A DNA stretch of 62,230 bases from a virus (lineage: Duplodnaviria; Caudoviricetes): IMG/VR virus record IMGVR_UViG_3300014501_000019, positions 1-62,230 of that record; one strand, written 5' to 3'. Numbering within the stretch: the first letter of the stretch is position 1; each line of letters begins with the position of its first letter. The notes beneath the pieces were generated by a model, which did not search any database, had not been told where the DNA came from, and worked only from the letters and a program-made list of their open reading frames with translations. Shown piece by piece: positions 15,240 through 56,675 of the stretch. The translations under genes and the position numbers were made by a program.

Positions 15240-18200
15240 TTAACTTCCTATCAATGACACGGAAATATCAGACACCTGATTGACAATGAACGCCTTTTCT
15301 CCAGTTACAAGTTGAATCTCGTCTTGTGCTAGATCATAAGTTGGCGATGTAAGAACAACAGAAGTCACTCCAGGGATCGCCCTAACCGTCTCTACAATAC
15401 TGCTGCAGTCAATTGATTGGCCTAGGGGGTTTGCCTGAATAAGTGCATACACACTCGATTGAATCTGAGAAGTTATTTGCGCGAAACTAACACCAATATT
15501 TGTCCTGATAGCCAAAGCGATTTGAATCCTCTTGAGAAGAGGTTCACGGATAAAAATATTTGTTCCCGCTGCTTCCACACCTGGATAGGTGATTGCGTCA
15601 CGGGGATCTCCATAGATAACCCGATTTGCTTGTCCAATCAAACCGGTATCATAATTGTAACTATCGATTCCAGTTCTAACAGTTGTTGGGAAATTTAGTT
15701 TCCCAAGTGATACCATTACTACGCCAGCCGATAAGTCGATTTTATCGTATTGCGCTGAAGTGTTAAAAATGATATTGTTGAAATTAGAGACTCCTAATTG
15801 TGGTGAAACATACGCAACTTGTTTATAACCGGTGTACGCAGTTCCTTCTTGAACCGACAGGGATACATAGTTAGCACCTAGACTGGTTCCAAACTGTTGA
15901 CCGATGACTCCAGAAACAACGATAGTATCGGGATTTAATACTTGCAGAATTTTGTAAGTTCCAGCATTTCCGATTCCAAGAATGGATCCGTTAACACTCA
16001 GCTTATCTCCTGGAACCGTTGCGTCATACGGAAAGAATTGGATTTGCGGTCTATTAACAGTGAAAGTCACAGAAGAAATTCCGGTTTGATTCACTCCTGT
16101 GGGATTCACAACATTTAAAAATGTTTGTTGACCTAATTGCGTGATAATGAAATTGAAAGCAGCTGGCATCGAAACATCTACTGGAGAATTAGTAGTTGCC
16201 GGAACTGTTGCTGTCACCGTCACCACATTGCTACTTACGGAAGAAGTCATTGCGGTCAAATGACCATTAATTGCTGTGTAGGTCTCATTAGCAACAGTTG
16301 TAGAGCTATCACTGCTATTGATACTTACTTCAATACCAGTGAAACCAGCAGGAGCGGGATCAGTATTGCTACCACCCAAAACATTATACCAAATATAATA
16401 TTTGTTAGCGTTACCACCGTTGTAAATTTCAAAATATTCTCCTGGACCCGTATCGGAAAACGTGATTCCCGATGGCATAATGAGTTGAACAATCTGTTGC
16501 TGTGCTGGTCCAGAACCTGTTACGATAAAATTGCCTTGATTAGCTGGAAGACTTGTGAATGCGGAGAAGGTGATCGTTGTATCACCGGTCCCAGAAGTTT
16601 TAGTTAATGTTCCAGAAGCTGTTGGGGCACCGGTTCCAATAGTTGTGAGGGTAGTTCCTGCTGCTATAGTGCTAGATACGGTAAATGTTTGACCATTGTT
16701 TATGTACGTCGCTCCAACAGTTGCATTGGCAGAAGTTACGGTAAAAGTATATTCTGTTTCAGTAAAACCAGCACCAAAAGTAACAACGTCTCCTGGAAGC
16801 AACACTCCTAAAGTCGGTGCAGTTCCTGTGCCGGTATAAACCAGACTAGCGGTTCCACCTACTACGGTTACATTGAAAGTTGTAGTAGAATCATAGCCCG
16901 TAGTAATTGGATTTACGACGCAAGTAACTTCTTCTTCAATTAAATCAGTAGCTAATGGGAAAGACAGGGCTTCTGGATTTTCATACCAAACACTGTCGTG
17001 ATTGCTACGAATGACTCTGTACTCACCTTGATTGAGAGGGGAGAAAGGAGAAGAGAGAATCATCGTATCACCTTCGGAAACCGAAGAAGTGGCTGTGAAC
17101 GCACCAGCTGAAATAGTGGTTCCATTTTCTACAACCGCTAAAGGATTATCTACACTGAAAGATGAACCATTAAGTGCAACGGCGGATACAAAGAATGTAC
17201 CATCGTTTGCAGAATTAGCGGCACCCGTAATAGTAATTAGATCTCCAATACTAAGATCAGCAAAGTTTGCGGTTCCCGTGGGCTCTGGCGTGTAAGAAGG
17301 AACAGTGATAGTTGTAGGTTCACTTAAGGTTACTGCAGCTGTTAAAGCGATTAGTGATCCATTAACTGTGCCGCCCAAAGTATTCGTAATACTGGCTTCG
17401 GCAATAATATTACCGTTAAATGTGCCAGCATTTCCACTGTTAATGGTGGCACTACTGCCAACTACCCAATAAACATTGGCCGCAATTGCACCGCCAGTTA
17501 AAGCAATCGTAGCAACTCCACCTGCGCCGGTAGTAAGGGTACTAGGTACTTGGAAAACAAATATGTCTGTTACACTACCATTGATAGTAAATGTTCCAGG
17601 ACCAGATTGAGCTAGATGTACATCCCCAGAAGGAAAGGTATAATAACCAGCAGTAACTGTATGCCCATCGAGAGCATTATAACCTAGATTAGTCGAAGAA
17701 TGGCTATTAAGAGTTGTATAAGCGCTCATGGCATCGGTTTGAGCGTTATCAGCAGCGGTATTGCCGAGATTAGTGGTTCCGGTTACTGTGAAAGCGCCTG
17801 TTACCGTAGATCCAGGATATTCGCCTAAATCTCCATTTACAACACTGGTTCCAACGCTATTAGTGATTGCTGAAGCCGCTAAAATACCATAAGGAGCGGC
17901 TCTTCCTAGAAAAGTGGCAGGAGGCTGAGGAGGATTAGCCACGACAGTATAAGTACCAGTAGAAGAAATGTCTACTGTGAATCCGCCAGTATCGTTAATG
18001 TTGACTACCGAATTGAATCCAGGAGAGGTTCCAACGCCATTCCAACTTAAACAAGCAAGTACACCTTGTTTTTCAATTCTAAAAGTTCTTCCTTCAACAC
18101 TAACATTTTTACGAGGTCCACCGAAATAAAGTTGATTGCCTTCTTGATTGAGTAGTGTTACCGTAGATTCACCAGCGACAGGAGTATTACTTAGGACAGT

Positions 18201-21200
18201 TACACTGGTATTTACACCGATTCCCGTGTCTTTATTTTGGAAGTTTTGAGCTTGCAATCTAAACCATTGATCGCTCATCATGGCTTGACTGGCGATATTA
18301 TTCGCAGAAACCACCATTTCGTTGTTTCCAAGTAATTCGCCAGAAGTTAAGACCGGTACCGTGTATTCATTTCCGCTGCCACCAACGATTTGAATGCTCC
18401 CTACAGATCCAATGGTATTAGTTGCAAGTTGTAGTTTGGTTCCACGATCACTGGTTTCCACGGTCCCAACGGTCGTGAAGCCTGTAACCGCCAAGACGTT
18501 CCAAAAATCTTTGACTTGATCCATGGTTGTTGGAATCAATCTAATAGTTTCTCCACTGGTAAAGAAACTATAGCCCGCAGCGCTTGGATAAGTTAATGGA
18601 GTTTTGAGCGTAAATTGTGGACTTCCAGTAACATTCGAACTTGCGATCCAATTAATTCCGTCAAAGAAATAATAAGACGGAGTTGTGAAACCGCTGTTTT
18701 CATAGGTGCTTAGAACAATATTTCCAGCGCCGGTTCCATTGACAACGGTCGTAGTAAAATATTGACTTAGATTTGCATTTACGTAAGCGTTAATAGCGTT
18801 AGCGGTAGTTGCAGTTGCAGTGAAGAAACTGATGCCATTAAGAACACTAGTTACAGCATTACTTTGTGCTACCGCTGTTCCACTTGGAACTGGTACGCTG
18901 AAAGATGTTGCAGTTGGAGTAATAGTAGTAGATACTCTAAAGGTGCCCGTATCTTTAATGTTAAACCCAGTCGAAGGAAGGATGGTAACATATTCGCCAC
19001 CACTCAATGTAAGATTTGGATTGGTTCCAACGGTGTTCCAGGTGTAAGTTACTTGATCGACTCCAGTTATAGGAGTGTTTGGGGTTATAGTAATATTCCA
19101 TTGTGTATTAGCGGCAATAGTGGAAGTAATGGGGTTACCAGAAAGCAAGCTAATTACAACCGCGACTTCATTATTTGGTGTTACTGTGGAATTTATGGGT
19201 TGATTGGCCGAAGTTGGATATACATAAGATACACTAATATTTTCGCCACTTCTACCAAAAAGTGCGGATCTATAAAGAAGAGAAGTATTTGAAGCCGCAC
19301 TGGAAACCACAAATTTGGCCTGCATCAAAACTTTATAATTGGCGAAAAAATCAGTTGGTGTGGTAAAAACGCTATTAAATGTAGGAACATTGAAATTAGT
19401 AGCAAAGCTCGCAGTGGCTCCAGCAGCAGTATCATAAGCATCAAAACTATAGTTATTAAGAGGAAATATACTGTTAACTAAAGCTGTTCTATAAAGAGGC
19501 ATCGTATAAGCTTCGCCTACAGTATTATTATCAACAATGGCAACTACGGTGTCATTATAACCAAAATCTAAGGGATTTGCTACGTAGAATCTGTCATTGA
19601 CCCTTAATCGTCTAACGTCTGGATACACTGGTAAGATAGTTACAGCTGTCCCAGCTAAAGTAGACATTTGAACCGTTTCTTCAGCCGGTTGTTCGTCGTC
19701 TAGAATAGTTCCTGGAACCACCCCATAAGGATGTAAAAAGTTAATAAGTTCATTTGGATCGAATTGAGACATTGATTGCGATGAAGAAAGACTGGTAAGA
19801 TAGCTATCAATGGGCTCGGCATAACTATCGGCGGTAAAATGAGAATGGAAAAACAATGGAAGTTCGGCTTGAGTTGCTTCGGTTTCATAGAATGCGATCA
19901 GTGCGTCTTGGCTAATATTGGTTTCACCACTAGTGAATCCCATCAACGCACCAAATGAATCCTGAGTAACTACGAAAATTTGACCTTCAGTGTTGAAAGT
20001 ATTGCTAACAACGGTAATATTAGTGTTGTCGAAAACTCCAAAAGTAAGTTGATCAGTTTGAAGTTGAAGTTCGGCGGCAATAACTTGCAAAGTTTTAGTG
20101 CCCGTAGTGACTCTAAATTTTTGTGGAACATTGGCGGTCCTGACAACTACGAAGCCTTGAATGAAGGTGGCGTTTGAGACTGGAGTAACTAAACCGTATT
20201 CGGCAACCGTAACTTCGATATCCAAAGTAGAACCGGTGACAGCGTGAACTCTACCTTCTATGTCATCGGTGGAAGGAATTTCAGCGGACCAAACAATAAC
20301 GTAATCGCCTGGAATTACATTGACAAAAGCCGTAGAGGAATTACTAGTATATCTAATGATGTTTGGGCTAACCTTAGAAACACTAAGTAAGGAACCGCTT
20401 TGAATTGTTGGAATAATTACAGCATCGGTATCTATGGAAATCCAAACATGCGCGTTTTCAGTCAAAACCACCATACCAGTACTAACATTACCGGCTTCAA
20501 TATGTGCCTGCGTGATAAGAGTTCCAGCGGAAAGCGTATCCAGTTTAACAAGAGCGGTGTCTAATTGGATTTGAGCGGTATTTCTATCCAAAATATAATC
20601 GGACTGCACGCCAGTTGAAGTGAGATCGATATTACTGATGACACCTTTTGAGATAAGGGAAGTGGGGTTTGAAATCGTATTGACTACTGTAACTTGAGCC
20701 CTATCGATTGGACCTAAATTAGAAGTGATTTCAATAGTGGATCCAACGATAGAAGCAGTGATTCCGGTAATGTTGGAATTAAGAACGTTCACCCAAGATT
20801 GTAAACTATTTGAAGCAGAAAGTGTGGTATAAGTTCCTTCTGCTACGAACATTGCGTTGGTCAGAGTGTAGGTAATTGGAGCGGTCCCATCAACTGCTAA
20901 ACTTAGAGTATCACCAGAGGCTAAAGTATTAGACCATTGGCCTTGTGAGAGTGTGAAAATAGAAGCCGTGGTACCATCCTCGGTTAATAGGATTCCATTT
21001 TTATAAAGTCTTAAAGTTTCCGCCTTCTGAGAAGGAAATTGAAGGATGGTATTGGCATCAATAACGTTGGTAGTTGCGGGAGTAGTGATTTGAATAACAT
21101 TGGTAATCTCATCTTCGGGACGAATAACAACATAGGTTCCACCGCCAGCAGTGACGGCTTCAAAATTTAGAACCGTGTCGCCATTGATAGAAGCACAAAC

Positions 21201-22472
21201 TTCGTAAGCAGTTGCAGATCCGGGATTAGCGAAATCTGAGGCTTGAAAAGTATGGTATTGAGTGATATTCCCAACTACTACACCGAGAACTTCGCCGCCG
21301 TTAAGGGCAAAGGGTTCGGCAGCAACGGTTTGAAGAAGAGCTTTGGTAACACTGGTTTGTTGGCCGCCTGTAACTAATTGGAAGAACTTCTCACCACCTA
21401 AAGCACTGTTTACGATAGCCTCGATTGGGACACCAGTATGAGTTGCTTCTAGGATACCGCCATCATCGATATAAACTATAGTATTTGAAGAATTGTTAAG
21501 AACATCGGTGCTGACAATAGTATTTGAACTATTTGGATCTTGTACGCCTTGTAATGCCGATTCGATAGCGGTTACCGTCCCGAGTCCAGTAGAAGCGAGT
21601 GCATTTTGAACTCTAACTCGAAGTTGGTTGTCTGTCTCAAGGTCTTGGCCGGTAGTAATGGAAAGAGGATTTGTAACAGAAGCATTTGGTAGCCCTGAAG
21701 GATTTCCAGAGAATTGAGAAATTGCGCCTCCGGGAACATTACCAGCGGCTCCAGGAAGTAAGGCGGTGATTGGTATGTTAGAAGCAACAACCTCACCGTC
21801 AAGAATAATCCCTTGTTGTGTAACCGAATACTGAATAGTAGGAGTGGTGCCGATGCCAGGAGAAACAACGATAGTGTTGACTGGGACCGTTCTTACGCCA
21901 CCTTGAGACAAGATTACGTTTTCTCCTAAATTGTGATATTTAGTTGTTACGGAAGAAAGTGTAATTTGCCAAAATGAACCAATTGGAGTCGGGGCAACGG
22001 TATAGGCAAGTGGTCCTTCAACGTCTACAGTGCCTCTACCAATATAAACCGCTCCTGTTGCGGGGAACAAAGAAGCGTTCGAAACGTATATAATATTAGA
22101 ACCTATATTTGGTGGCTGAATTCCAGCATAAATAGTCGTAGAAATTTTTTGAAAGCTTAGATCGGTGACGGTGACAAAACCGGTAGCTGTTAAAGCGGGG
22201 AGGGGCGGAACATCATACTCGATCGCCAGATTTTGCAAACTTGGTCCAGTTGCCCTCGATAAATTAAAGTCACGAAGGATTTGAAATACGTCTCCGCTTG
22301 AACGACTCACCATCAAAGCGACCAATTTGAAAAAAGAAACGTTCGCACTTCCTACATTAAGATCGTTTGTGTTGATGCTAGAACTATAACTAGAAAGCAT
22401 CTGCCCCAAGATCTCTTCAAAACTTTGAGGTTGAGGCAACGACGAACTTGGTGGTGTGGGACTAGTGGCCAT
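15240..22472 (-). CDS. Giant baseplate J-like (gp6-type) protein with inserted domains including DUF3494
   Basis: N-terminal ATGPSLQNLA..PGAAGNV..GQDLETDNQLRVR and C-terminal IVETVRAIPGVTSV match baseplate J; ~1900-aa beta-rich insertion; DUF3494-like segment ~17305-17912. Confidence 0.8.
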   Translation of the reverse strand: MATSPTPPSSSLPQPQSFEEILGQMLSSYSSSINTNDLNVGSANVSFFKLVALMVSRSSGDVFQILRDFNLSRATGPSLQNLAIEYDVPPLPALTATGFVTVTDLSFQKISTTIYAGIQPPNIGSNIIYVSNASLFPATGAVYIGRGTVDVEGPLAYTVAPTPIGSFWQITLSSVTTKYHNLGENVILSQGGVRTVPVNTIVVSPGIGTTPTIQYSVTQQGIILDGEVVASNIPITALLPGAAGNVPGGAISQFSGNPSGLPNASVTNPLSITTGQDLETDNQLRVRVQNALASTGLGTVTAIESALQGVQDPNSSNTIVSTDVLNNSSNTIVYIDDGGILEATHTGVPIEAIVNSALGGEKFFQLVTGGQQTSVTKALLQTVAAEPFALNGGEVLGVVVGNITQYHTFQASDFANPGSATAYEVCASINGDTVLNFEAVTAGGGTYVVIRPEDEITNVIQITTPATTNVIDANTILQFPSQKAETLRLYKNGILLTEDGTTASIFTLSQGQWSNTLASGDTLSLAVDGTAPITYTLTNAMFVAEGTYTTLSASNSLQSWVNVLNSNITGITASIVGSTIEITSNLGPIDRAQVTVVNTISNPTSLISKGVISNIDLTSTGVQSDYILDRNTAQIQLDTALVKLDTLSAGTLITQAHIEAGNVSTGMVVLTENAHVWISIDTDAVIIPTIQSGSLLSVSKVSPNIIRYTSNSSTAFVNVIPGDYVIVWSAEIPSTDDIEGRVHAVTGSTLDIEVTVAEYGLVTPVSNATFIQGFVVVRTANVPQKFRVTTGTKTLQVIAAELQLQTDQLTFGVFDNTNITVVSNTFNTEGQIFVVTQDSFGALMGFTSGETNISQDALIAFYETEATQAELPLFFHSHFTADSYAEPIDSYLTSLSSSQSMSQFDPNELINFLHPYGVVPGTILDDEQPAEETVQMSTLAGTAVTILPVYPDVRRLRVNDRFYVANPLDFGYNDTVVAIVDNNTVGEAYTMPLYRTALVNSIFPLNNYSFDAYDTAAGATASFATNFNVPTFNSVFTTPTDFFANYKVLMQAKFVVSSAASNTSLLYRSALFGRSGENISVSYVYPTSANQPINSTVTPNNEVAVVISLLSGNPITSTIAANTQWNITITPNTPITGVDQVTYTWNTVGTNPNLTLSGGEYVTILPSTGFNIKDTGTFRVSTTITPTATSFSVPVPSGTAVAQSNAVTSVLNGISFFTATATTANAINAYVNANLSQYFTTTVVNGTGAGNIVLSTYENSGFTTPSYYFFDGINWIASSNVTGSPQFTLKTPLTYPSAAGYSFFTSGETIRLIPTTMDQVKDFWNVLAVTGFTTVGTVETSDRGTKLQLATNTIGSVGSIQIVGGSGNEYTVPVLTSGELLGNNEMVVSANNIASQAMMSDQWFRLQAQNFQNKDTGIGVNTSVTVLSNTPVAGESTVTLLNQEGNQLYFGGPRKNVSVEGRTFRIEKQGVLACLSWNGVGTSPGFNSVVNINDTGGFTVDISSTGTYTVVANPPQPPATFLGRAAPYGILAASAITNSVGTSVVNGDLGEYPGSTVTGAFTVTGTTNLGNTAADNAQTDAMSAYTTLNSHSSTNLGYNALDGHTVTAGYYTFPSGDVHLAQSGPGTFTINGSVTDIFVFQVPSTLTTGAGGVATIALTGGAIAANVYWVVGSSATINSGNAGTFNGNIIAEASITNTLGGTVNGSLIALTAAVTLSEPTTITVPSYTPEPTGTANFADLSIGDLITITGAANSANDGTFFVSAVALNGSSFSVDNPLAVVENGTTISAGAFTATSSVSEGDTMILSSPFSPLNQGEYRVIRSNHDSVWYENPEALSFPLATDLIEEEVTCVVNPITTGYDSTTTFNVTVVGGTASLVYTGTGTAPTLGVLLPGDVVTFGAGFTETEYTFTVTSANATVGATYINNGQTFTVSSTIAAGTTLTTIGTGAPTASGTLTKTSGTGDTTITFSAFTSLPANQGNFIVTGSGPAQQQIVQLIMPSGITFSDTGPGEYFEIYNGGNANKYYIWYNVLGGSNTDPAPAGFTGIEVSINSSDSSTTVANETYTAINGHLTAMTSSVSSNVVTVTATVPATTNSPVDVSMPAAFNFIITQLGQQTFLNVVNPTGVNQTGISSVTFTVNRPQIQFFPYDATVPGDKLSVNGSILGIGNAGTYKILQVLNPDTIVVSGVIGQQFGTSLGANYVSLSVQEGTAYTGYKQVAYVSPQLGVSNFNNIIFNTSAQYDKIDLSAGVVMVSLGKLNFPTTVRTGIDSYNYDTGLIGQANRVIYGDPRDAITYPGVEAAGTNIFIREPLLKRIQIALAIRTNIGVSFAQITSQIQSSVYALIQANPLGQSIDCSSIVETVRAIPGVTSVVLTSPTYDLAQDEIQLVTGEKAFIVNQVSDISVSLIGS

Positions 22473-33726: not shown

Positions 33727-33906
33727 ATGGCAACTAAAAATAAAACTAAGAACAAAGAAAATGACAAAGAAATCGAATACTTGGAGAAATTAATCAAATA
33801 TAGTGCCCGCTGTTTAGATGATAAATATGAAGTTCTAGATTCTATTTTTGTCGAACAAATCTACAAACTTAAGAAAGAAATCAATAAAATCAAGGAAAAA
33901 CAATGA
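33727..33906 (+). CDS. Hypothetical protein (59 aa)
   Basis: Read manually (MATKNKTK...); ATGA overlap with the next gene. Confidence 0.6.
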   Translation: MATKNKTKNKENDKEIEYLEKLIKYSARCLDDKYEVLDSIFVEQIYKLKKEINKIKEKQ

Positions 33907-34424
33907 GTTACAAAAAACTTGGTTTTCTATTTGTAATCGCAGCGATTGTAGGGTTCGCAACTTCTATCCTATTGAATCTAGCGTATGCCGATGAGGCCTT
34001 CGTAGGATATGGCGTTGGTATCTTTAGAGGCGCTGATCAATTCTTAGGCCAAACCAAATATGCTAGTATTGGATACCGGGATTTTCTTTACGAAGGTCTT
34101 TATTGGCAAAGCAAACTTGGATTTATTGGCGAAGGAAGTGCGGACCAAACCAGAAAAAGTGGGGGTTGGACCAGTAGTGGATTTGGCTTAGAAACAAATC
34201 TTTCGCCAGTTGAACTAAGAGGCGGGGCGGCATTGGCTGCAATTACTACTCCCGATAGTCAACTTGGAGGGTATTTTGAATTTAATGAAGATGTTAGTAT
34301 TGGTCTGCGTGATACAAGAGGGGATGGAATTGCTTTACAATATAATCACATCAGCTGTGCCAGTCTATGCTCACCGAATTTAGGCCGGGATGCTGTTATG
34401 TTGGAACTGAGTCAAAAATGGTGA
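33903..34424 (+). CDS. PagL-like lipid A 3-O-deacylase / outer-membrane beta-barrel
   Basis: Signal peptide ending AYA; LGGYFEF..SIG..YNHISCA....PNLGRD; terminal Trp. Confidence 0.7.
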   Translation: MSYKKLGFLFVIAAIVGFATSILLNLAYADEAFVGYGVGIFRGADQFLGQTKYASIGYRDFLYEGLYWQSKLGFIGEGSADQTRKSGGWTSSGFGLETNLSPVELRGGAALAAITTPDSQLGGYFEFNEDVSIGLRDTRGDGIALQYNHISCASLCSPNLGRDAVMLELSQKW

Positions 34425-38179: not shown

Positions 38180-38504
38180 GAGAGAAACCCATGGAGATCA
38201 TTACATCTAAGACTTCAGTTTTTCTTAGGCTATTGATCAATCTAGCAAAGTCCTTATCTTTTTCGATATGAACTAGGATTGGACCTTTGAAATAACCTGG
38301 ACAATAAACATTGGCTAACCTTAGAAGTCTCTCTCCTTCTTCCTCCATAAATACAGCGTAGTAATCATGGGCAATGCAAGTTAGTCCTTTGCCTACCGAT
38401 AGAAGAGGAATTGTATCTGCGAATTCATAAAACCACTCTTCGAGTCTAATAAGTTCTTTAAGTAGGATTACGTGATTTTCTGGAATATCGCCAAAGGTTC
38501 TCAT
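38172..38504 (-). CDS. Hypothetical protein
   Basis: Coupled ORF. Confidence 0.6.
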   Translation of the reverse strand: MRTFGDIPENHVILLKELIRLEEWFYEFADTIPLLSVGKGLTCIAHDYYAVFMEEEGERLLRLANVYCPGYFKGPILVHIEKDKDFARLINSLRKTEVLDVMISMGFSLD

Positions 38505-41056: not shown

Positions 41057-41617
41057 TCAGTCCCAAAGATTTCTAATATATTTATTAAGAATATCAAAAA
41101 ACCATTTTTGCTCGCGTTTAGACATAGCATCACCTTTAAAACAAGCTATAAGGAAGTCGCTACGTTCTTCTTCTTGTTCTTCTGGAGTATTAGCGTTTGG
41201 TCTAGAACTATTCCATTTAGACATATCCTTATGATCAATACAAGGAGTAAACCATGTGTACAACTCTCCCCACTTTGAGGCATGGCGCTCGTAAAAAAGT
41301 ATATCGTAGCTATCTTCTTTAAGCCTGCCAGCTAGTTTAATGGCTAATCTGAGAGCTTTCATGTCTTTATCTTCTTGGATAGCAGAACCATTAAGAAGAC
41401 AATTTTCAACACGTTTTAGTTTATATTCCAAGATAGCAAATATACTGTTCGCGTCAAAGTCATAATCATTTCGGAATACGTACCAGAACCAGCCCAATGT
41501 TTTACTTAGCAATCTATATGGTCTACGAAAACAAGTGTATTTGAAATCTCTGATCCAACCATAAAGAGGAGATTCTATATACCAAAGATAGAGCTTCGAT
41601 GGTTTCGAATTAAACAT
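41057..41617 (-). CDS. Hypothetical protein
   Basis: 186-aa ORF in a minus-strand run. Confidence 0.65.
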   Translation of the reverse strand: MFNSKPSKLYLWYIESPLYGWIRDFKYTCFRRPYRLLSKTLGWFWYVFRNDYDFDANSIFAILEYKLKRVENCLLNGSAIQEDKDMKALRLAIKLAGRLKEDSYDILFYERHASKWGELYTWFTPCIDHKDMSKWNSSRPNANTPEEQEEERSDFLIACFKGDAMSKREQKWFFDILNKYIRNLWD

Positions 41618-43616: not shown

Positions 43617-45227
43617 TTAAGTAATTACGTAACTCGCAGAACCAACCTGAGAGGTAGCGTATCCAGACAATACGGCAATTGCATTTACGGTCTCGGAAGC
43701 GGATACGGAGATTGCTCCAGTATATAGAGTGCTATATACCGTAGGAGTCGTTCCATTGGTAGTATAGTAAATAGCGGCTCCGGGAGTGCCCGAGGTGATC
43801 GTAACCGTCTGTGTAGAAGGGTAGGATCCACCAACAGGACTGAAAGCGGGGCGACCTACTTGAGAAGAAACAGGAGCTAATACTGTAGTAACAACTGCAC
43901 CACTGGCACTAGAGAATGCTTCAGCCATAACCGGCGTTTCAGGACCACTCGAAGGAGCGATAACGTTCGCGGCAGCACTAAGAGTAACGGCTCCAGTCAA
44001 AGCGATTAATGAACCATTCACGGTTCCACCAAGAGTATCGGTGATACTGGCTTGAGCGATGATGTTACCTTGAAAGGTGCCAGCGCTCCCTGAATTGATG
44101 GTTGCAGATGAACCAACGATCCAGTAGATGTTGGCAGAAGTAGCCCCGTTTTCAAGAGTCATGACAGGAACACCTCCAGCACCAGTAGTAAGTGTGGAAG
44201 CAGTATATAGGATATACGTGCCTGCACCATTAAAAGTTAGGGTTCCTGTAGCAGAAGTAGCTAGATGTGCAGCTCCTCCGGTGAACTGATAATTCCCAGG
44301 TGTGAGTGTTTGACCGTCTAGAGTTGCTGAAATCGTGGTACCAGCTAGACCAAGAGTTTGTTTGGAGGTAAACGAAGCTTGTGCTGCGGTTTGGGCAGAA
44401 GAAGCTACGCCGTCCGCGATATGCTCGCCACCAGTATAAGTACCAGGAGGGAAGCCAGTAATACTCGTCCCAGGATAGATGCCAAGATCTCCAGTAAGAA
44501 CGCTTGAACCCGTATTGGTGACTGCAGAGGCGCCCAAGATAGCGAAGGCACCCATTCCACCGCTAGAGGCGTTCATGGCTGCAACTGTCTTAGTGGCAAC
44601 TGCTGAAGCCGAATCACTGCTAAGAATGGTTACTTCGATCCCGGTAAAGCCAGCTGGAGCTGGGTCGGTATTTGAACCGCCTGAAACATTATACCAAATG
44701 TAGTAAGAATTAGAATTACCGCCAGTAAATATTTCAAAGTACTCACCTGCACCAGTAGATGCGAAGGCAGAACCTGCGGGGAAAGTCATCAAATCCCACT
44801 GCTGACGAGCGGGACCTTGAAATTGAACAGATGAACTAAATCCGGAAGGCATCGTTACATTAACTGGCGAGCCGTTAAAATACGCATTTGGAAAAGAGTT
44901 GGGCACCGTTGGGGGTAAAAAGTTTGGAAAAATAGGAGCTTGGACACCGCCAGCTAGAGCGTTAAGCAGTTCTTTTAGACTAGCATCTGGAAGACTGAAG
45001 CCGTCTTTTACAAACTGAACGTCAAGAGGACTAAGTGCGTAGGTTCCAAGAATACAGGCTTGAAAATTACTGGCCATACTAGGACGACCAAGACAGTCGG
45101 TCAGTCTAGTAAAATCAATGGAAGAAAGTGTGGTTTCTTGGGCAATGGCGGAAACGAGGTTGAGACCTGAAGTGGTGCTGCCCATTCCGCTGATAAGATA
45201 AGCTTGAGTAGTTGAAGATAAAGACAT
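43617..45227 (-). CDS. DUF3494 ice-binding-like protein with C-terminal Ig-like (chitobiase/Fn3-associated) domain
   Basis: FAILGASAVTNTG..GDLGIYPGTSITGFPPG..LTPGNY..NIYWIVGSSAT..GNIIAQASIT (~43960-44560); PAFSPVGGSY..IYYTTNGTTPT..LYTGAI (~43620-43860). Confidence 0.85.
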   Translation of the reverse strand: MSLSSTTQAYLISGMGSTTSGLNLVSAIAQETTLSSIDFTRLTDCLGRPSMASNFQACILGTYALSPLDVQFVKDGFSLPDASLKELLNALAGGVQAPIFPNFLPPTVPNSFPNAYFNGSPVNVTMPSGFSSSVQFQGPARQQWDLMTFPAGSAFASTGAGEYFEIFTGGNSNSYYIWYNVSGGSNTDPAPAGFTGIEVTILSSDSASAVATKTVAAMNASSGGMGAFAILGASAVTNTGSSVLTGDLGIYPGTSITGFPPGTYTGGEHIADGVASSAQTAAQASFTSKQTLGLAGTTISATLDGQTLTPGNYQFTGGAAHLATSATGTLTFNGAGTYILYTASTLTTGAGGVPVMTLENGATSANIYWIVGSSATINSGSAGTFQGNIIAQASITDTLGGTVNGSLIALTGAVTLSAAANVIAPSSGPETPVMAEAFSSASGAVVTTVLAPVSSQVGRPAFSPVGGSYPSTQTVTITSGTPGAAIYYTTNGTTPTVYSTLYTGAISVSASETVNAIAVLSGYATSQVGSASYVIT

Positions 45228-46926: not shown

Positions 46927-47322
46927 TCATCCTTTTTCATCGCATTTAGTACAGTAGTTATAGGTTTCAGTGAAGCCTTCGTATTTAGCCCAGGCGTGGT
47001 TGCAAGTTTTGAAGTCTTCATCACAGGTAATCCAACCAGGGTTTTTAAACTGTGCATAGAACTGCTTTCTAAACTGTGCATAGAACTGCTTTCTAAGCTC
47101 TTCTATATCCTCATCTACATAATTCCTAACCAATTCAATTGTTTCCTCAGTCTCTGGAGAGGGTTTATAATTAGGATCTCCAGGCATGCCTAGAATATAA
47201 CCTGTTGGAAAACCATTAATGGCAACATATCTAAGAGCGTCTAACATATCATCCTTATATGGAACATCCTTCTTAGAACAAGACATGGATTCCAAATAAT
47301 CGAGAAAATTACCTTCGTTCAT
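46927..47322 (-). CDS. Hypothetical protein with C-terminal zinc-knuckle
   Basis: CNHAWAKYEGFTETYNYCTKCD. Confidence 0.65.
   Translation of the reverse strand: MNEGNFLDYLESMSCSKKDVPYKDDMLDALRYVAINGFPTGYILGMPGDPNYKPSPETEETIELVRNYVDEDIEELRKQFYAQFRKQFYAQFKNPGWITCDEDFKTCNHAWAKYEGFTETYNYCTKCDEKG
47046..47093. repeat. Perfect 24-bp tandem duplication
   Basis: TAAACTGTGCATAGAACTGCTTTC x2 (RKQFYAQF x2). Confidence 0.9.
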
Positions 47323-47513
47323 TTCTTCACCTCAACTGGCATAGCCGTCTTCACTAGTTCGATCTTAGCAGAGACCATAGAAAGTTCGCGTTCAAGAAAC
47401 TGTCGATATTCTTTGGCACGATTCTTGTGCTTTTCTGGCAATACGGTAGAAGCAAGTTTTAGCTTAACATCGCTCTCATACTTAACAAGACTGATCAACT
47501 TTTCCTTATTCAT
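47319..47513 (-). CDS. Hypothetical protein
   Basis: ORF with RBS. Confidence 0.6.
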   Translation of the reverse strand: MNKEKLISLVKYESDVKLKLASTVLPEKHKNRAKEYRQFLERELSMVSAKIELVKTAMPVEVKK

Positions 47514-49220: not shown

Positions 49221-49511
49221 CTAAAACCACAGCCGTTCGTCTTCAGTTAAACCAAACTCCTGACAAACCCTTTCAGCTTCTGGAATATCTCGCTCATTGA
49301 TATACCAAGTACAAGAGTTGGTTTCATCACCAATAGGTAGGTTGTCGATTAATTCTTCAATGGCATCCCTATTATGTTCTGCAATGTGATCGTCTATATA
49401 TCCAACTTGCTGGGAGCTAAGGGAAAAACGATATTCGCCGTCAGTATATTCGTCACTGTAAATTATATAACGATACCCTTTTAGATTACTCATTTTCATC
49501 TCATCACGCAA
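49221..49511 (-). CDS. Hypothetical protein
   Basis: ORF in a minus-strand run. Confidence 0.55.
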   Translation of the reverse strand: MRDEMKMSNLKGYRYIIYSDEYTDGEYRFSLSSQQVGYIDDHIAEHNRDAIEELIDNLPIGDETNSCTWYINERDIPEAERVCQEFGLTEDERLWF

Positions 49512-49702
49512 TTTCGGTGAATATTTTCGGTTCCATTACAACAGGGGCATTGATTGGTTTCTGTTATATAAAGAGAATATACGGCATGAGCCATTTCAAG
49601 TCTGGTAATTAAACTAGCACTGTCGTCGTAACAGTAATCATTACGTTCAATCTCGTCTTGAAGTTCCTTAATAGTAGTTTTTATCCAATTTCCAAAATTC
49701 AT
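49496..49702 (-). CDS. Hypothetical protein
   Basis: GAGG RBS before ATG 49702. Confidence 0.55.
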   Translation of the reverse strand: MNFGNWIKTTIKELQDEIERNDYCYDDSASLITRLEMAHAVYSLYITETNQCPCCNGTENIHRNCVMR

Positions 49703-49863
49703 ATTAATCCTCGTATCCAAGATATACGCGCCAACCTTCGGTACCAAAGAAATCGTCCATGGACAATTCGTCCAATTTCTTCATAAGGTCTTCCAGCAAT
49801 ATTTCTCTTTGCATGGCAGTCAACACGTCAAGATCACGGGTTCTACGGGGACACAAGACTTTC

Positions 49864-50181
49864 TTAGGTTTGTTTTTCTTCATCTTCGCCTTCCTCGATA
49901 TGTGAATACTGGTATTTAAGTTGGTCTAAACTAATCCTATTGCCATCTCTATCCATGAGAATGAATCCGCCATCTCTCATGTCTATACTAAGTTTTATAT
50001 ATTTGCACAGACTATTTTTAATCCAAGACCAATCTATGGCTCCCGGTTTTAAAGTCATTCCGTCTTCCTCGTATGGATCTTCTATTGCGGCGGATTTAAT
50101 GAAAGCAATGACTTCATCAAAGTTGGTTTCCCAAATATTTGCATTTACTTTAGCTTCAAATTCTTTACTTGGTTTATTCAT
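49864..50181 (-). CDS. Hypothetical protein
   Basis: ORF in a minus-strand run. Confidence 0.6.
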   Translation of the reverse strand: MNKPSKEFEAKVNANIWETNFDEVIAFIKSAAIEDPYEEDGMTLKPGAIDWSWIKNSLCKYIKLSIDMRDGGFILMDRDGNRISLDQLKYQYSHIEEGEDEEKQT

Positions 50182-50212
50182 AAATAGAATGTATTCTAAT
50201 AACTAATGAAGG

Positions 50213-50479
50213 TCAATCTTTATCTTCAATTCCTTTCATAAATTCGTCCAAAGAGATCCTAACACCTTCTACTCCATAAGCATTCCTATATTTACCATCT
50301 TTTTGTAGTGTAAAGTGCTCGGGACTCCAATTCATAGCACGTTGAATTTGGTCATGTAGGGCATCTTCTCTGGCAGTTCTAGTCCTACGCCATGGACGAT
50401 CCGGTGCAAATCCAATAACGAAAAGCGGTAGAAAAAATACAAAAAATAGTAACCCGAATGTGAACAATAAATCAACCAT
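50213..50479 (-). CDS. Hypothetical membrane protein
   Basis: N-terminal TM helix. Confidence 0.6.
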   Translation of the reverse strand: MVDLLFTFGLLFFVFFLPLFVIGFAPDRPWRRTRTAREDALHDQIQRAMNWSPEHFTLQKDGKYRNAYGVEGVRISLDEFMKGIEDKD

Positions 50480-50846
50480 TTTCTTCTTTCTTTACGTTAC
50501 AATGCTTGCAATACTCATACCTACTCCAACCACTATCGTAGGTTAACCAAACATGGTCGCAAGGTAGATCAGGTAGATCAGGTAGATCAGCATGGGAAGC
50601 CGTAACAGGAGATAACGATTCAAGAAATACTTGAATATCTAGTTCCAAGTCTTTTTCATCGATGGTATATGTACGACTACCGACAGTAACGAATCCTTGA
50701 CTGTTATCCAGTACTTGGCACATAACTTGATAAGTACGTTCTGTGATTCCAGTGCTATGGCCAGCAATTCTAGTCCCAATAACGATACCTTTATTATAAT
50801 GGGTGAAAAGCTTAATAATTACTTTGTCGCGGAGTTTAAACTTCAT
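50472..50846 (-). CDS. Hypothetical protein with C-terminal zinc-knuckle
   Basis: MKFKLRDKV SH3-like start; DLP x3 linker; CDHVWLTYDSGWSRYEYCKHCN. Confidence 0.65.
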   Translation of the reverse strand: MKFKLRDKVIIKLFTHYNKGIVIGTRIAGHSTGITERTYQVMCQVLDNSQGFVTVGSRTYTIDEKDLELDIQVFLESLSPVTASHADLPDLPDLPCDHVWLTYDSGWSRYEYCKHCNVKKEENG

Positions 50847-50982
50847 ATCGATTTACTTTGGTTTAAATATGTTTAATTTTTTAGCAAGTTTTACCGCAGA
50901 TTTTTCTTTACCACTGGCTTTAATTTTCTTGTCAAGAATCTTTATCATCAAGAGTCTACCTTCTTTTGTTAACCCCATAATT

Positions 50983-51207
50983 TCAATGACTTGTTTTCGT
51001 AGGATCTATATCTTCTAAGGAACCATCTAGACCCGGTTTATTCTCTGGATTGTTTCCTGTGTATCTTTCTACTAAGTAGTTTAATCCAAACTGGGTAGTT
51101 TCTGGAATTTCAAAGAAATGCTGGCAATCGTCGTGACGGCATATAAAGCCAACTAACATAAACTGAGTTTCTTTTCTATTACATTTGGGACAAACTACTT
51201 CATTCAT
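50983..51207 (-). CDS. Hypothetical zinc-ribbon protein
   Basis: AAGGA RBS before ATG 51207; CPKC..CRHDDC. Confidence 0.6.
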   Translation of the reverse strand: MNEVVCPKCNRKETQFMLVGFICRHDDCQHFFEIPETTQFGLNYLVERYTGNNPENKPGLDGSLEDIDPTKTSH

Positions 51208-51224
51208 ATTTTCCTTTAAATAAT

Positions 51225-51430
51225 GGGTAGGGATTCTCGATTTACCCCTAGGCTCGCTCCTCATACCTATTTACCTTCCGGCCCTGGTAAGTGCTCCCCG
51301 GAAGACCCTGACTATCACATTAGCCAGCCCACTCATTTACAGTCACCTACCCGCTAACCGTTCGGTTAACGCTGAAATCGGCCTTTGCTTAGCAATCTGC
51401 GATTCATCGCATTGGCTTTCGGCGCTGCTA
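51225..51430 (-). ncRNA. Putative structured RNA of unknown class
   Basis: GC-rich intergenic island with several nested stems; candidate TTGACT-17-GAATCT promoter on the minus strand just upstream. Confidence 0.5.
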
Positions 51431-51542
51431 TAAATAGAGATTCGCACAAAGAGGAAAGGAAGTCAAATGTTTTTTGGCGAAGCCTCCGTGGTATTTATCT
51501 TGCCTTTATTAAAATATATGAGACTATGGTTAGGAGGTATAT

Positions 51543-52109
51543 ATGAAAGGCGCAAGAAGTTTAACAGATCAAGAAATAACGGATGTCTATAACTCATTGA
51601 AATCTTTGAGAGATAAGGCATTTTTCTGGCTAGGCATAAAATGCGGGTTAAGAATAAGTGAAATACTTTCTTTACAGATCAAGGATGTCATGGAGTATGG
51701 AGAAGTTGGAAGTCAGGTAAAGGTAAGAAAAAACAATACCAAGGGTAAAATAGAAAGCAGGACTTTGCCACTGACAGAAAGTGCGAAACGAGTATTGAAA
51801 ACGTATATTGATAGTTTATGGAAAGCCGTGCCCGATGATATGCTGTTTAAGTCAAACCAAAGTAAAGAGGCTATCACAGTAAGGCAAGCCAATAGAATTC
51901 TTAAGGAAGCGTTCAACCAATTAAAGTTGCAGGGAAATTGCAGCTCACATAGCCTAAGAAAGAGTTATGCCCACAGAGTCCATAAGGCGTTGGGCGAAAA
52001 GATTGAAAAGACGCAGATAGCAATGGGGCATAAAAGTCTGAGTTCGACGGTAAGCTATATTCAGGTAAATAGGGAAGAAGTAGATCAGGCGATCTTGGGG
52101 ATGGGATAA
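51543..52109 (+). CDS. Tyrosine recombinase, catalytic domain only
   Basis: GLRISE (R), TKG (K), HSLRK (HxxR), MGH..STVSY (H, Y); AGGAGG RBS; 188 aa. Confidence 0.92.
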   Translation: MKGARSLTDQEITDVYNSLKSLRDKAFFWLGIKCGLRISEILSLQIKDVMEYGEVGSQVKVRKNNTKGKIESRTLPLTESAKRVLKTYIDSLWKAVPDDMLFKSNQSKEAITVRQANRILKEAFNQLKLQGNCSSHSLRKSYAHRVHKALGEKIEKTQIAMGHKSLSSTVSYIQVNREEVDQAILGMG

Positions 52110-52354
52110 TGGACAATAGAATAACTCATAAAAACGTGGTTATAGAACTTCAAATGAATGAAGAACCAATATTTTTGGTGGGTAGGGGTTGGGTTCATGT
52201 AGCGATGCTGTGTGGAAGTTATAATAGGGACCAATTAAAAGATCTCATTGGTTTACAATTATGGGGAACAAAAGTTTTAGCGGTAGAAAGTTTCTGCATC
52301 GATAATCAGACCAATAGGCCAATTGGGCTTTTAGTCAATAGGAGATTGTGGTAA
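52109..52354 (+). CDS. Hypothetical protein
   Basis: TAATG coupling to the recombinase. Confidence 0.6.
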   Translation: MDNRITHKNVVIELQMNEEPIFLVGRGWVHVAMLCGSYNRDQLKDLIGLQLWGTKVLAVESFCIDNQTNRPIGLLVNRRLW

Positions 52355-52656
52355 TTATGAACGAAACTATATGGTTAGTAGCATTTTACCTGTTTAAGTA
52401 CTATTCCAGACCAGGCTTTGAGAGAATCGATCTCCATTGGATTTTTAAGACAGAGGAACCAGCCAGGAGAGCGTGCGAGAAGAGTTTTTGTGATGAAGCG
52501 GGCTGGTATGAAGGCGCTCTGATTGAGGAACGACCGTTTGGTTATCGTTTATCAAAGAATCTAAAGAGAATTTGGTATCGCCAAGATGACCACGGCGTAA
52601 TGGAAGAAATTGAAGAACCAAAAAATTATAAAAACGTCAGCAATCTAATCGGTTGA
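52348..52656 (+). CDS. Hypothetical protein
   Basis: AGGAG RBS. Confidence 0.6.
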   Translation: MVIMNETIWLVAFYLFKYYSRPGFERIDLHWIFKTEEPARRACEKSFCDEAGWYEGALIEERPFGYRLSKNLKRIWYRQDDHGVMEEIEEPKNYKNVSNLIG

Positions 52657-52660
52657 TGAT

Positions 52661-52921
52661 ATGGGAAGCTTAAATAAATACGAATTATCGCATCTAGCAT
52701 TTATTATTGATGCCCTAGTGGGTTGCCCTAAACAAGTGGACAAAATAGAAAAAGCGGTTAAAAAGTATTTTCCAAAGCAGAGTGAATTGCTGAAGAAAAC
52801 TATTAAAGAAGCCTTTGAAATAGCTAGAGGTAAGAAAAGCGAAGATGAACGATTGCTAGGTTGCTTTGAGTGGGCGAAAAGTAATTACCAGTATAGGAAA
52901 AATAGAAATGGCAAAAGATAG
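52661..52921 (+). CDS. Hypothetical protein
   Basis: ORF in operon. Confidence 0.6.
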   Translation: MGSLNKYELSHLAFIIDALVGCPKQVDKIEKAVKKYFPKQSELLKKTIKEAFEIARGKKSEDERLLGCFEWAKSNYQYRKNRNGKR

Positions 52922-53222
52922 TTATACTAAAAGAATGAAGGGCAGCTGGAATCAAGGTAAACGCTGCAAGGGCGATGCAGAGGAACGCCAATACGCTAAA
53001 ACTGAAATAAAACAAGAACTTGAAAGCGACGATGAGAATTATCTTGTAAAACACAAAGCTAAGAAAAAGAAGAATGAGAAAGCAAGGTTAGAACATTGGA
53101 TTGACTGGTATGAAAGGACTATCCAGGAATACGAGCGACGAGGAATGGACGACAGTCACACAAGTTATTTGAGGGATGGTCTGAAGAAGGCAAAAATGAA
53201 ACTGGAGAAACTAAAGCCATAG
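52908..53222 (+). CDS. Hypothetical basic protein
   Basis: ATG 52908 after AGGA. Confidence 0.6.
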   Translation: MAKDSYTKRMKGSWNQGKRCKGDAEERQYAKTEIKQELESDDENYLVKHKAKKKKNEKARLEHWIDWYERTIQEYERRGMDDSHTSYLRDGLKKAKMKLEKLKP

Positions 53223-53225
53223 TTT

Positions 53226-53900
53226 TCAGAGCGAAGCGACCACGGGTATTGGAATCTCAAAAGGTGGAATGCTTTCGTCGATGTTGTGAAGAAGCTTGTA
53301 GGCTAGCCATTCTTCTGGAGACTTTGCATTCTTCTGGATATTATATATCCCCCACATGGGTTTTATATTTGTAAAATGAAAATATTTATATAACTCTTCT
53401 TCTGTTTTAGCGTTGGAAAGAGAAATTGTATGATCTAAATGCCATTCACCGTGATTGTCCCAAGTCATTCCTGGTTGAAATAGGGATTCTAGATAGACAG
53501 TTAGTTCGTAAATAGAACATCCTAAGTATTTGGCATAATCGCATGAATTATTAAACCTACCTTTTTTAAGAGCAGAATTTAGTCTAGATCTTAAAGTATT
53601 TTTCAATCTAACTATGGTATTTTTAGGTTTGTAGGCTTTTGTTTTATTAACAGATTTTTTACGCCTGACTCGGGGAGTAAACTTATGATCTTTGAAAAAT
53701 ACAGGTATTTTTCTTTCCCTTCGTTTTTCTTTAATCTTGTCCTTGTTTAACATACGCCTTTTGCTGTCATAATCACGTTCACAAACTCTACAAATATAAT
53801 AAGATTTTACACTCTCATGTTTATCCCTGTATTGCCTAAAATCTGTTTGGTTCTTTTCAGTCAAACACTGATTACATATTTTATTACTCAAATCGCTCAT
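53226..53900 (-). CDS. HNH-type homing endonuclease (paralog of 4038-4793)
   Basis: CNQC..CRVC; YLESLFQPGMTWDNHGEWHLDH..HFTNIKPMW..N..K. Confidence 0.85.
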   Translation of the reverse strand: MSDLSNKICNQCLTEKNQTDFRQYRDKHESVKSYYICRVCERDYDSKRRMLNKDKIKEKRRERKIPVFFKDHKFTPRVRRKKSVNKTKAYKPKNTIVRLKNTLRSRLNSALKKGRFNNSCDYAKYLGCSIYELTVYLESLFQPGMTWDNHGEWHLDHTISLSNAKTEEELYKYFHFTNIKPMWGIYNIQKNAKSPEEWLAYKLLHNIDESIPPFEIPIPVVASL

Positions 53901-54606
53901 ATTATATATGTTATATCATAAGATTTTTATAGAAAAATTTTTAATGATATTAATAAGTTACGTTCATTAATTCTTTAAAATTCTGGAAAAATTTTAAAGT
54001 TGTTATTACGGTCGTGTGAATAAATGTAACTATATGGGCCTTCAGTTTGGCCATGTCTATTAGGACCCGGTTCATGAAATATATGTCTAACCTTTTGTAA
54101 TCATTGACTTATTTGGATTGGCATGTTCTATGATGCCGATACGTGACACATGCACGCGGACATAGGTGATGACTCATGTCAGGGCAGACATTTTGCATTA
54201 GCAATGCCGATGCCATACAACTTAACTAATGCATACGCGGGTTTATAGCGCAACGCGTTATAGGCCGATGCTATGGCCATGGCTTACCCTGCGTTGTCCA
54301 CTGGCGCCGATCCTAGACAGTCTGCTAGTGAATTTCGAATACCTATAAGGTACGATACAGCATGACCTGACTGGCGCATTGACTCCAATGGGCGCCATTG
54401 ATACTAACTATATGAGATTATTAAATTTAGTTTGATTCGTGACTTCTTTTACTCTTTCGGGACACTGGCATTTTGAAACACAAATGCCCTGCAACGGATG
54501 CTCCGCGCAAGGCGATTGACTATTTATTTTTCTAATGCTATAAAAGCGAGGGATAATACTAGCTATGTATTAATCCCTCATTGTAAAGATTGAACTACTT
54601 AACTAG

Positions 54607-55900: not shown

Positions 55901-55916
55901 ATAATTGAAAGAATTT

Positions 55917-56405
55917 ATGAAAATCTCTAATTCCCGTGGTTTCAGTTTGCTTGAAACCATGATTGCTCTGGCCGTCTTGAGTATCCTAGCTATGGCTTCC
56001 GCAGGCTTGATGACCAATATACTTCGGGCTCAAGTCACGGCTACCGTTGATTCAGATATCCTAGGTTTAGTCAGTCAAATGCGAGCGGCGTTGCAAAACA
56101 GCACTACAGCCGTATGTTCAGAGGATCTATCCAGTGGTTTACAAGTAGTGAACCCTTTGAACACTGTGCAGGTCATTGCTAGCGGTGGTATGTCATTTAA
56201 TAATAAACTTTGGAATATCTCCATGATTGGATTGACTAATACCACTGTGTTGAATGGCGTTACTAAGGGGACAGTCGTCATGACAGTCAATAAAGACACT
56301 ACTAGACTCTATGGCGCGCCCCAGTCTCAAATTGTAGTCACTGATATCTATTGCACGACTCCAGTTGCGCCAGTGACTCCCGTTGACCCCTGTGATAAAA
56401 ATTGA
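55917..56405 (+). CDS. Type IV pilin/pseudopilin-like protein
   Basis: Class III signal MKISNSRG|FSLLETMIALAVLSILAMA (Gly -1, Phe +1, Glu +5, hydrophobic helix). Confidence 0.85.
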   Translation: MKISNSRGFSLLETMIALAVLSILAMASAGLMTNILRAQVTATVDSDILGLVSQMRAALQNSTTAVCSEDLSSGLQVVNPLNTVQVIASGGMSFNNKLWNISMIGLTNTTVLNGVTKGTVVMTVNKDTTRLYGAPQSQIVVTDIYCTTPVAPVTPVDPCDKN

Positions 56406-56417
56406 ATTGAGGAAACC

Positions 56418-56675
56418 ATGAAAGTCTTTACTAAGATATATGATCCTGGACATGGTTGGCTGAAAGTTAGCCGTAAAGCCTATGAGGCAAGCGGTTACGT
56501 AGCATCGCGATACAGCTATCAGTCTGCTAGTGGTAAAACCGTGTATCTTGAAGAGGATTGCGACATGTATGGGTTTTTGTTGGCTATTGGCTACAGTACC
56601 TTAACGCGTGTTCGACTCAAAAATGTTTACATCAAAAACTATAGCAAAATCCGTAACTTGGAGCCTATCAAATGA
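56418..56675 (+). CDS. Conserved phage hypothetical protein
   Basis: DPGHGWLKV..YSY..VYLEEDCD motif; GAGGA RBS. Confidence 0.7.
   Translation: MKVFTKIYDPGHGWLKVSRKAYEASGYVASRYSYQSASGKTVYLEEDCDMYGFLLAIGYSTLTRVRLKNVYIKNYSKIRNLEPIK

Follow-up and report, generated by a model that had tools for sequence, protein, structure and literature searches.

In large phages many non-coding regions lack an explanation, and few of the RNAs made by phages have been assigned a role. The pRNA of phi29-type phages is a phage-encoded structured packaging RNA that is made from an early promoter, and the large lytic phage T4 carries two small stable RNAs, RNA C and RNA D, in its tRNA region. Other structured RNAs bind proteins, as do 6S RNA and CsrB/RsmZ, or lie beside a recombinase gene, as does the structured bridge RNA of the IS110 family, which measures ~150-200 nt and combines a conserved scaffold with a variable part. 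At the level of DNA, tyrosine recombinases are known to act on folded single strands, with integron attC sites and CTX phage as examples, and the 3' ends of tRNAs are classic integration sites. Finally, mobilization of SGI1 requires a small RNA, sgm-sRNA, which is encoded beside the tyrosine-recombinase-like protein MpsA and which, according to the authors, acts differently from classical regulatory sRNAs (PMC9299015).

The stretch of DNA that we analysed (hereafter the window), an IMG/VR virus record, has 62,230 bases, a completeness estimate of 39% and a G+C content of 40%. It represents 62 kb of the ~160-kb genome of an uncultured tailed phage from permafrost or peat, and the metagenome DNA runs that contain this phage carry the labels permafrost and peat. 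The window codes for very large baseplate/tail-type proteins that carry ice-binding-like domains, for a transglycosylase, for a PagL-like protein, for a dUTPase and for a ribonucleotide reductase, and it has several HNH and endonuclease VII genes (Pfam, PHROG). The ice-binding-like domains (PF11999, E 1e-31 to 1e-35) lie in three large tail/baseplate-type proteins (4795-8607, 15240-22472 and 43617-45227). The PagL-like protein is a lipid A deacylase homolog (33903-34424), and together with a phage-encoded protein that has a type IV pilin N-terminal methylation motif (55905-56405) it hints at a Gram-negative host. The element studied here occupies a 335-nt gap that separates two divergent gene sets, and positions 51220-51430 on the minus strand are most likely the gene for a folded ncRNA of ~211 nt, of a family not described before; the ends of this candidate were placed by the limits of conservation and by promoter spacing.

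The locus resembles each of the described systems in part. As is the case for T4 RNA C and RNA D, it would encode a structured phage ncRNA of 100-200 nt with no assigned function, and the accessory region in which it is found carries genes of tRNA type in the relatives G001 and G003; unlike the T4 region, the window contains no tRNA or tmRNA gene according to ARAGORN, and the likeness is one of description, not of sequence or model. With the phi29-type pRNA the element shares its phage origin, structure and approximate size, but it has no Rfam match and comes from a phage of ~160 kb that is unrelated to phi29-like phages. A short motif that is repeated unpaired within a conserved fold recalls 6S RNA and CsrB/RsmZ, and this likeness is the basis of our guess at a mechanism, although in this case too there is no Rfam match and the motif is (G/U)UAAAU. 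Size, position at the side of a recombinase gene and the presence of conserved and variable parts recall the IS110 bridge RNA, whereas the neighbouring enzyme is of the PF00589 tyrosine type rather than the DEDD type and no element ends were seen. In a search of the flanking DNA and the two phage genomes, no loop of the element showed complementarity above chance. In SGI1, sgm-sRNA likewise lies beside a tyrosine-recombinase-type protein, one whose polypeptide does not include the core-binding-like domain, but it is part of a module for conjugative mobilization that has an oriT, and it arises by maturation from an mRNA 3' end (PMC9299015). The present locus is set in a phage, has no oriT and no MpsB-like gene, and was compared with the SGI1 module by description and not by sequence; Pfam scans revealed no relaxase or oriT feature.

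Conservation and fold of the element

When viral contigs were searched with aligned relatives of the recombinase, 80 loci were returned, and one of these, L002, holds a second copy of the element (81.7% identity over 218 nt by blastn; window 51221-51432 corresponds to L002 3982-3776, on opposite strands). L002 is part of contig G001, which has 162,446 bases and a completeness estimate of 100%. The two phages are collinear, with structural proteins that are 60-76% identical and a reductase that is 90% identical. Among the 22 blastn segments common to the window and G001, the element has the highest identity, followed by segments at 75.2% (the ribonucleotide reductase gene) and 75.0%, and it is the only segment in inverted orientation. 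Around it little else is shared, as just four ORFs between 47.5 and 62.2 kb of the window match anything in G001, namely 50472-50846 (30%), the recombinase (61%), 56418-56675 (46%) and 53226-53900 (31%, with its match at a distant place in G001). The first of these, on the minus strand, contains three tandem copies of a 9-nt unit (AGGTAGATC) at 50563-50592, which reads DLPDLPDLP. The 82% identity of the element could partly stem from recent exchange and not from purifying selection.

The RNA family has two known members, which come from related phages. The covariance model R1 scored 254 and 250 bits on its own two source copies, and no further homolog was found with R1 by cmsearch in 100 and 79 sources, with a two-sequence nhmmer profile in 164 loci, or in single-protein locus scans. 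In 38 phage records that were collected via the ribonucleotide reductase gene, 17 of them at least 90% complete, R1 matched only G001, the positive control. Exact probes hit G001 only in IMG/VR and nothing in GTDB genomes; a 16-mer probe found 17 loci in IMG/VR, of which the 16 outside G001 had no RNA detectable with R1, and blastn of the element against a phage collection gave no match. As for transcripts, 0 of 12 sequencing runs were RNA runs, and the contigs from four runs (four, all short) miss 51076-51515.

The initial annotation of this stretch had called the element highly structured, which the thermodynamics do not bear out. Compared with dinucleotide shuffles, minimum free energy (MFE) z-scores were near chance for a 273-nt segment (-0.44 on the plus and -0.05 on the minus strand) and not significant for the 211-nt core (-0.92 on the minus and -1.03 on the plus strand). 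The structure seen in the single sequence is thus no more than chance would give. The GC content of the element is 0.52, against 0.40 for the window.

The evidence for a fold comes instead from the comparison of the two copies. The alignment consisted of two sequences, the minus strand of the window and the plus strand of L002, and the consensus structure was derived from this same alignment. RNAalifold returned -59.95 kcal/mol and 55 pairs, ten of which had changed on both sides with pairing kept, while the opposite strands gave -41.75 kcal/mol, 45 pairs and two doubly changed pairs. All 110 of 110 pair cells (two sequences, named structure) held standard pairs, and the observed pairing values were reached by 1 of 500 shuffles. 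When partners were slid by 1-3 columns as a control, pairing dropped to 28-48%, with 0-1 double changes. Thirty-six substitutions separate the two sequences; 22 of them are in paired columns and all of these keep the pairing, so that the one homolog in which covariation could be looked for shows ten compensated pairs and no broken pair. All seven gap columns are unpaired and form runs of 4, 1, 1 and 1 nt, which excludes a conserved reading frame. On the plus strand an ORF of 44 aa overlaps the element, as do, on the minus strand, 19 codons by which the downstream 74-aa ORF could be extended upstream, and an ORF of 21 aa lies within the RNA; in G001 these reading frames shift or end early, and a small protein was rejected as a candidate. 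Because there are only two sequences and the structure was taken from their own alignment, the covariation statistics are weak. Judged from the two copies, sequence and base pairing of the element nonetheless clearly appear to be under selection.

The consensus fold has two domains, and the separate single-sequence folds of both RNAs agree on this overall architecture. The predicted 5' domain (51339-51428, minus strand; alignment columns 3-93) consists of one hairpin and a variable stretch, both within a closing helix; 65 of its 94 columns (1-94) are identical, and its closing helix shows one A-U to G-C exchange. The hairpin (51352-51371, minus strand) has eight pairs and a conserved GAAC loop. 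Six of the eight pairs have changed on both sides and still pair, and three of its pairs are G-U or U-G, which are workable on the minus strand only. The 3' domain (51222-51333, minus strand) is almost invariant (104 of 118 columns identical; columns 95-212) and would form a five-way junction, with a closing helix AGUGGG/CCCAUU around four hairpins. In one of these (51308-51327, minus strand; seven pairs), two pairs have had both partners replaced and one G-U pair corresponds to G-C. Both single-sequence folds contain the 3' closing helix and three of the four hairpins, while the fourth (51250-51268) pairs differently in L002. The motif (G/U)UAAAU occurs unpaired three times in both RNAs.

All of the stems that had been quoted in the initial annotation are present in the plus-strand sequence at the coordinates given, but they differ in how they relate to this fold. 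The local hairpins CTGACTA/TAGCCAG (51308-14/51321-27, within 51308-27), CTTCCGG/CCGGAAG (51275-81/51298-304), 51352-71 and TAGG/CCTA (51249-52/51266-69) are helices of the two-phage consensus. The last of these has four pairs, since the fifth pair of the stem quoted as TAGGC..ACCTA is a C-A mismatch, and the first has one A-C mismatch on the plus strand that is a G-U pair on the minus strand. The stems TGCGAT/ATCGCA and TTGCT/AGCAA do occur in the minimum-energy fold of the window, but in that fold only, and the region differs in the homolog. The two proposed long-range closing helices, GGGTAGG/CCTACCC (51225-51231/51346-51352) and CGCTGAAA/TTTCGGCG (51370-77/51417-24), are missing from the consensus; by our estimate, about one perfect 7-nt complement is expected by chance anywhere in 211 nt.

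The comparison also favours the minus strand as the strand that would be transcribed, because of the alifold energy, the compensated pairs, the G-U pairs and the conservation of TTGAC and TG at the same spacing upstream. The structure contains nine G-U pairs in the window and eight in L002, which are C-A mismatches on the other strand. Against the minus strand stands the plus-strand helix CGCTGAAA/TTTCGGCG, in which two one-sided changes are compatible with the plus strand alone.

One could regard the element as functionless DNA that was recently exchanged between the two phages and whose structure arose by chance. The MFE z-scores of about -1, the existence of only two copies and the status of the element as the sole inverted segment, which fits recent transfer, would agree with this. 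It is hard to reconcile, though, with 36 substitutions that broke no pair, with a hairpin in which six of eight pairs were replaced and remained paired, and with the fall in pairing in the slid controls, and we consider it extremely improbable.

RNA gene, leader or DNA site

With respect to known families, the element could not be placed. Rfam 15 (4227 models) at gathering thresholds gave no match in the whole window and none in 140 kb of G001, and with E values up to 10 only chance-level matches to the S10-Clostridia leader (16.3 bits, threshold 35.1) and HOTTIP_2 (7 bits) appeared. In L002 3400-4100 there were three short sub-threshold Rfam matches, all on a neighbouring tRNA-like element, and ARAGORN called no tRNA or tmRNA gene in L002 and G001. 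The stem and loop sizes of the four hairpins in the 3' domain are unlike those of D, anticodon and T arms. The earlier view that the element belongs to no tRNA, tmRNA or riboswitch class therefore stands after an Infernal search against Rfam. Of the two identities offered in the initial annotation, a novel ncRNA or a structured leader of the minus-strand operon, the homolog favours the first.

Upstream of the RNA, a promoter-like motif is conserved. On the minus strand of the window, the -35-like hexamer TTGACT (51461-51466) matches the consensus at five of six positions, and its counterpart in L002 is TTGACG (3742-3747); in both phages TTGAC is 34 nt from a conserved TATAGC. After a 17-nt spacer follows what may be a weak -10-like hexamer preceded by TG (TGC GAATCT, 51438-51446, minus strand). 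L002 has the same spacing, with TTGACG, 17 nt that end in TGA, and then TAGGTT. Only TTGAC and TG are conserved upstream of the element, in DNA that is otherwise unalignable. Relative to the sigma-70 consensus TATAAT, the -10 hexamers match at two (window) and three (L002) of six positions, and a simple consensus promoter scan called the site in neither phage. The minus-strand promoter TTGACT-17-GAATCT that had been suggested at 51466-51461/51443-51438 can thus be read from the sequence, with GAATCT as a poor hexamer and no call from the scan. Given these weak hexamers and the missing scan call, we go no further than to infer that the RNA has its own sigma-70-like promoter (TTGAC, 17 nt, TGn and a weak -10).

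Downstream of the RNA, more than ten small and tightly packed ORFs form the minus-strand side of the gap, with the first likely start at 51207. The first ORF (50983-51207, minus strand) encodes 74 aa with several Cys pairs and has an AAGGA ribosome-binding site ~10 nt past the RNA end; it matched no family in Pfam or PHROG and no ORF in G001. The element could accordingly be a cis-acting 5' leader, riboswitch or attenuator, for the minus-strand operon from 51207, since in the window it is immediately flanked by the sole promoter-like motif on one side and, on the other, by the ribosome-binding site of the operon's first gene. Several observations speak against such a leader. G001 lacks a homolog of that first downstream ORF, no predicted helix includes the ribosome-binding site, no alternative terminator/antiterminator pairing was found in the window, and no riboswitch family in Rfam matches. 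The G001 copy has no downstream gene on the same strand.

In G001 the recombinase (L002 2501-3067, plus strand) ends a row of plus-strand genes and is followed by two small minus-strand ORFs, a tRNA-like element on the minus strand and the RNA (L002 3778-3983, plus strand). The 3' side of the RNA is occupied by a GC-rich hairpin and then by the stop codon of a convergent 332-aa gene. Because of this hairpin and this convergent gene, we view the RNA in G001 as a stand-alone gene and not merely a leader. In the window no minus-strand terminator-like site was called within 50800-51800, and a 3' end or terminator of the RNA is not evident there. On balance, the leader reading seems to us unlikely, and an RNA gene remains the preferred one.

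The tRNA-like element (L002 3575-3680, minus strand; about 41192-41297 of G001) lies ~100 nt from the RNA gene, divergent to it. It has a 9-bp acceptor-like stem, two T-arm-like hairpins (GGGUUCGAUUCCC, GGGGUUCGAAUCCC) and an MFE z of -2.4; ARAGORN did not call it, Rfam gave partial T-arm matches only, and the window has no counterpart. The RNA is similar at its 3' end to the last ~18 nt of this element (17/18). Two relatives without the RNA each have one tRNA gene, a tRNA-Ile(tat) in G003 (5309-5385), ~2.2 kb from the recombinase of that phage, and a tRNA-Met(cat) in G009 (49442-49516).

The element might also act as DNA, as an attachment or recombination site, a folded single-stranded recombinase site, or a replication or packaging signal. 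This idea gains some appeal from the adjoining recombinase gene and from the likeness of the RNA's final 17 nt to the 3' terminus of G001's tRNA-like element. However, the pairing requires nine and eight G-U pairs and works on one strand only, and it is on this G-U-pairing strand that the promoter-like motif is conserved. Flanking direct or inverted repeats did not exceed chance, two exact probes (20 and 22 specified bases) had no match in 185,579 species genomes, and a core site would be far shorter than these 211 nt, which have a closed helix at either end. We therefore hold a DNA-level role to be highly improbable. A search for integron attC-like repeats in 49500-54500 found only short two-copy matches, and the minus-strand ORFs are packed without spacers.

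A 14-mer of the last hairpin of the RNA recurs at window positions 53481 and 4257 and at G001 38259, in HNH-type genes in which it encodes the peptide LESL. It is included, with 1-2 mismatches to the hairpin (TAGGGATTC..GAT), in a ~37-nt block that is nearly identical in two HNH-type genes of the window (4234-4270 and 53458-53494), and a weaker copy of this block lies at G001 38244-38272 in a non-homologous 223-aa ORF. An invertible or excisable segment was considered and rejected, as the 14-mer copies are in coding sequence and their number is near chance at up to two mismatches. We judge the likeness of the block to the RNA hairpin to be a protein motif plus chance.

The neighbouring recombinase

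On the plus strand, divergent from the element, lies the minimal tyrosine recombinase that had been recognized before (51543-52109). It has 188 aa and consists of the catalytic domain only (PF00589 at residues 7-178, E 5.9e-23; phrog_216 integrase), without an N-terminal core-binding domain, and R37, K67, H136, R139, H163 and Y172 are invariant in 38 recombinase relatives of 180-197 aa. Position and orientation of the recombinase within the collinear backbone are the same in the window and in G001, while the RNA has moved relative to it. The RNA is 112 nt away from the start of the recombinase gene in the window, and in G001 it is on the other side, flipped, ~710 nt from the stop.

Such an arrangement raises the thought that the RNA is a cofactor of this catalytic-domain-only enzyme and aids DNA recognition or assembly in place of the missing core-binding domain. 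The RNA is near the recombinase in both phages even though every other nearby gene was replaced and its side and orientation changed, the enzyme lacks any N-terminal DNA-binding domain, and sgm-sRNA beside the tyrosine-recombinase-like MpsA of SGI1 offers a precedent (PMC9299015). These points are weighed against the distribution of the RNA. It is present at 1 of 160 loci of recombinase relatives (80 from viruses and 80 from metagenomes, with short flanks in many cases), the one being L002, and in 0 of 5 whole records with such relatives. Synteny with the recombinase thus holds for the two phages and fails at the other 159 of 160 loci. Furthermore, RNA and recombinase share one variable interval of 5.6-8.5 kb, for which we estimate a probability of chance closeness of ~0.2-0.3; matches of the RNA or its complement to the phage genomes were at chance level, the longest being 11 nt (window) and 13 nt (G001); and the recombinases of a distant clade are coupled instead to an HTH_17 protein. 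We rate a cofactor role as unlikely to very unlikely, and a small module of RNA and recombinase that moved as a unit within the variable region as very unlikely. A partnership with the recombinase is speculative, which is how it had been presented originally, and the absence of the RNA from nearly all loci of recombinase relatives upholds that caution. Among the papers listed by a literature search, none dealt with RNA guidance of a tyrosine recombinase.

The flanks of 161 recombinase loci were compared by all-against-all blastn for conserved islands, and one recurrent island was examined. A general rule of a recombinase plus an adjacent RNA was rejected, as this island is an HTH_17 protein gene and not an RNA. 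In the distant clade (~40% identity), a gene for a 77-94-aa HTH_17 (excisionase-type) protein overlaps the stop codon of the recombinase (ATGTCATGA). It is located at 1375-1608 in L128, for which alone the HTH_17 assignment was made with Pfam, at the same place in L111, L122, L124, L125, L129, L130, L133, L134, L136 and L139, and slightly further downstream in L132 and L141. The recombinase of this clade therefore appears to have a small DNA-binding partner protein.

Positions 51261-51276, in the 3' domain of the RNA, are 88% complementary to 52063-52078 at the 3' end of the recombinase gene, and both transcripts would carry GGUAAAUAGG. This 16-nt match is probably due to chance, because the codons involved, which encode QVNRE, read SVDRE in the G001 recombinase. 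A search for a protein partner by co-occurrence was not convincing either, since the window ORFs that are present in G001 and absent from G003 and G009 are mostly small unknowns; 47319-47513, 50472-50846 and 56418-56675 are among them.

Possible function and meaning for phage biology

Our proposal is that the host RNA polymerase would transcribe the RNA from its own sigma-70-like promoter and that the RNA would act in trans and not on the adjacent genes. In the phage of the window, this promoter probably drives the downstream operon as well, in which case the RNA might be cut from the operon transcript or form its 5' end. As a guess, the invariant 3' domain and the three exposed (G/U)UAAAU motifs could bind a conserved phage or host protein, with the RNA serving as a scaffold or a decoy. 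This guess stems from the near-invariant 3' junction, the repeated exposed motif, the variable 5' domain and the location in an early accessory region. Taken as a whole, an RNA gene with its own promoter, action in trans and the guessed protein binding is the explanation that we consider best, and we hold it to be probable.

What is known is the general kind, phage-encoded structured small RNAs; what is new is an RNA family without an Rfam match. The element is the most conserved DNA common to the window and its closest known relative, above any shared protein gene, which suggests that the phage clearly needs it, and it sits in a region that usually holds genes for host takeover and counter-defence. 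Should the RNA prove to bind a protein of the host or the phage, phage biology would gain a new RNA-based tool. If it works with the domain-less recombinase, it would represent a new way to direct site-specific recombination, and, were that partnership true, the first RNA-assisted tyrosine recombinase in a phage.
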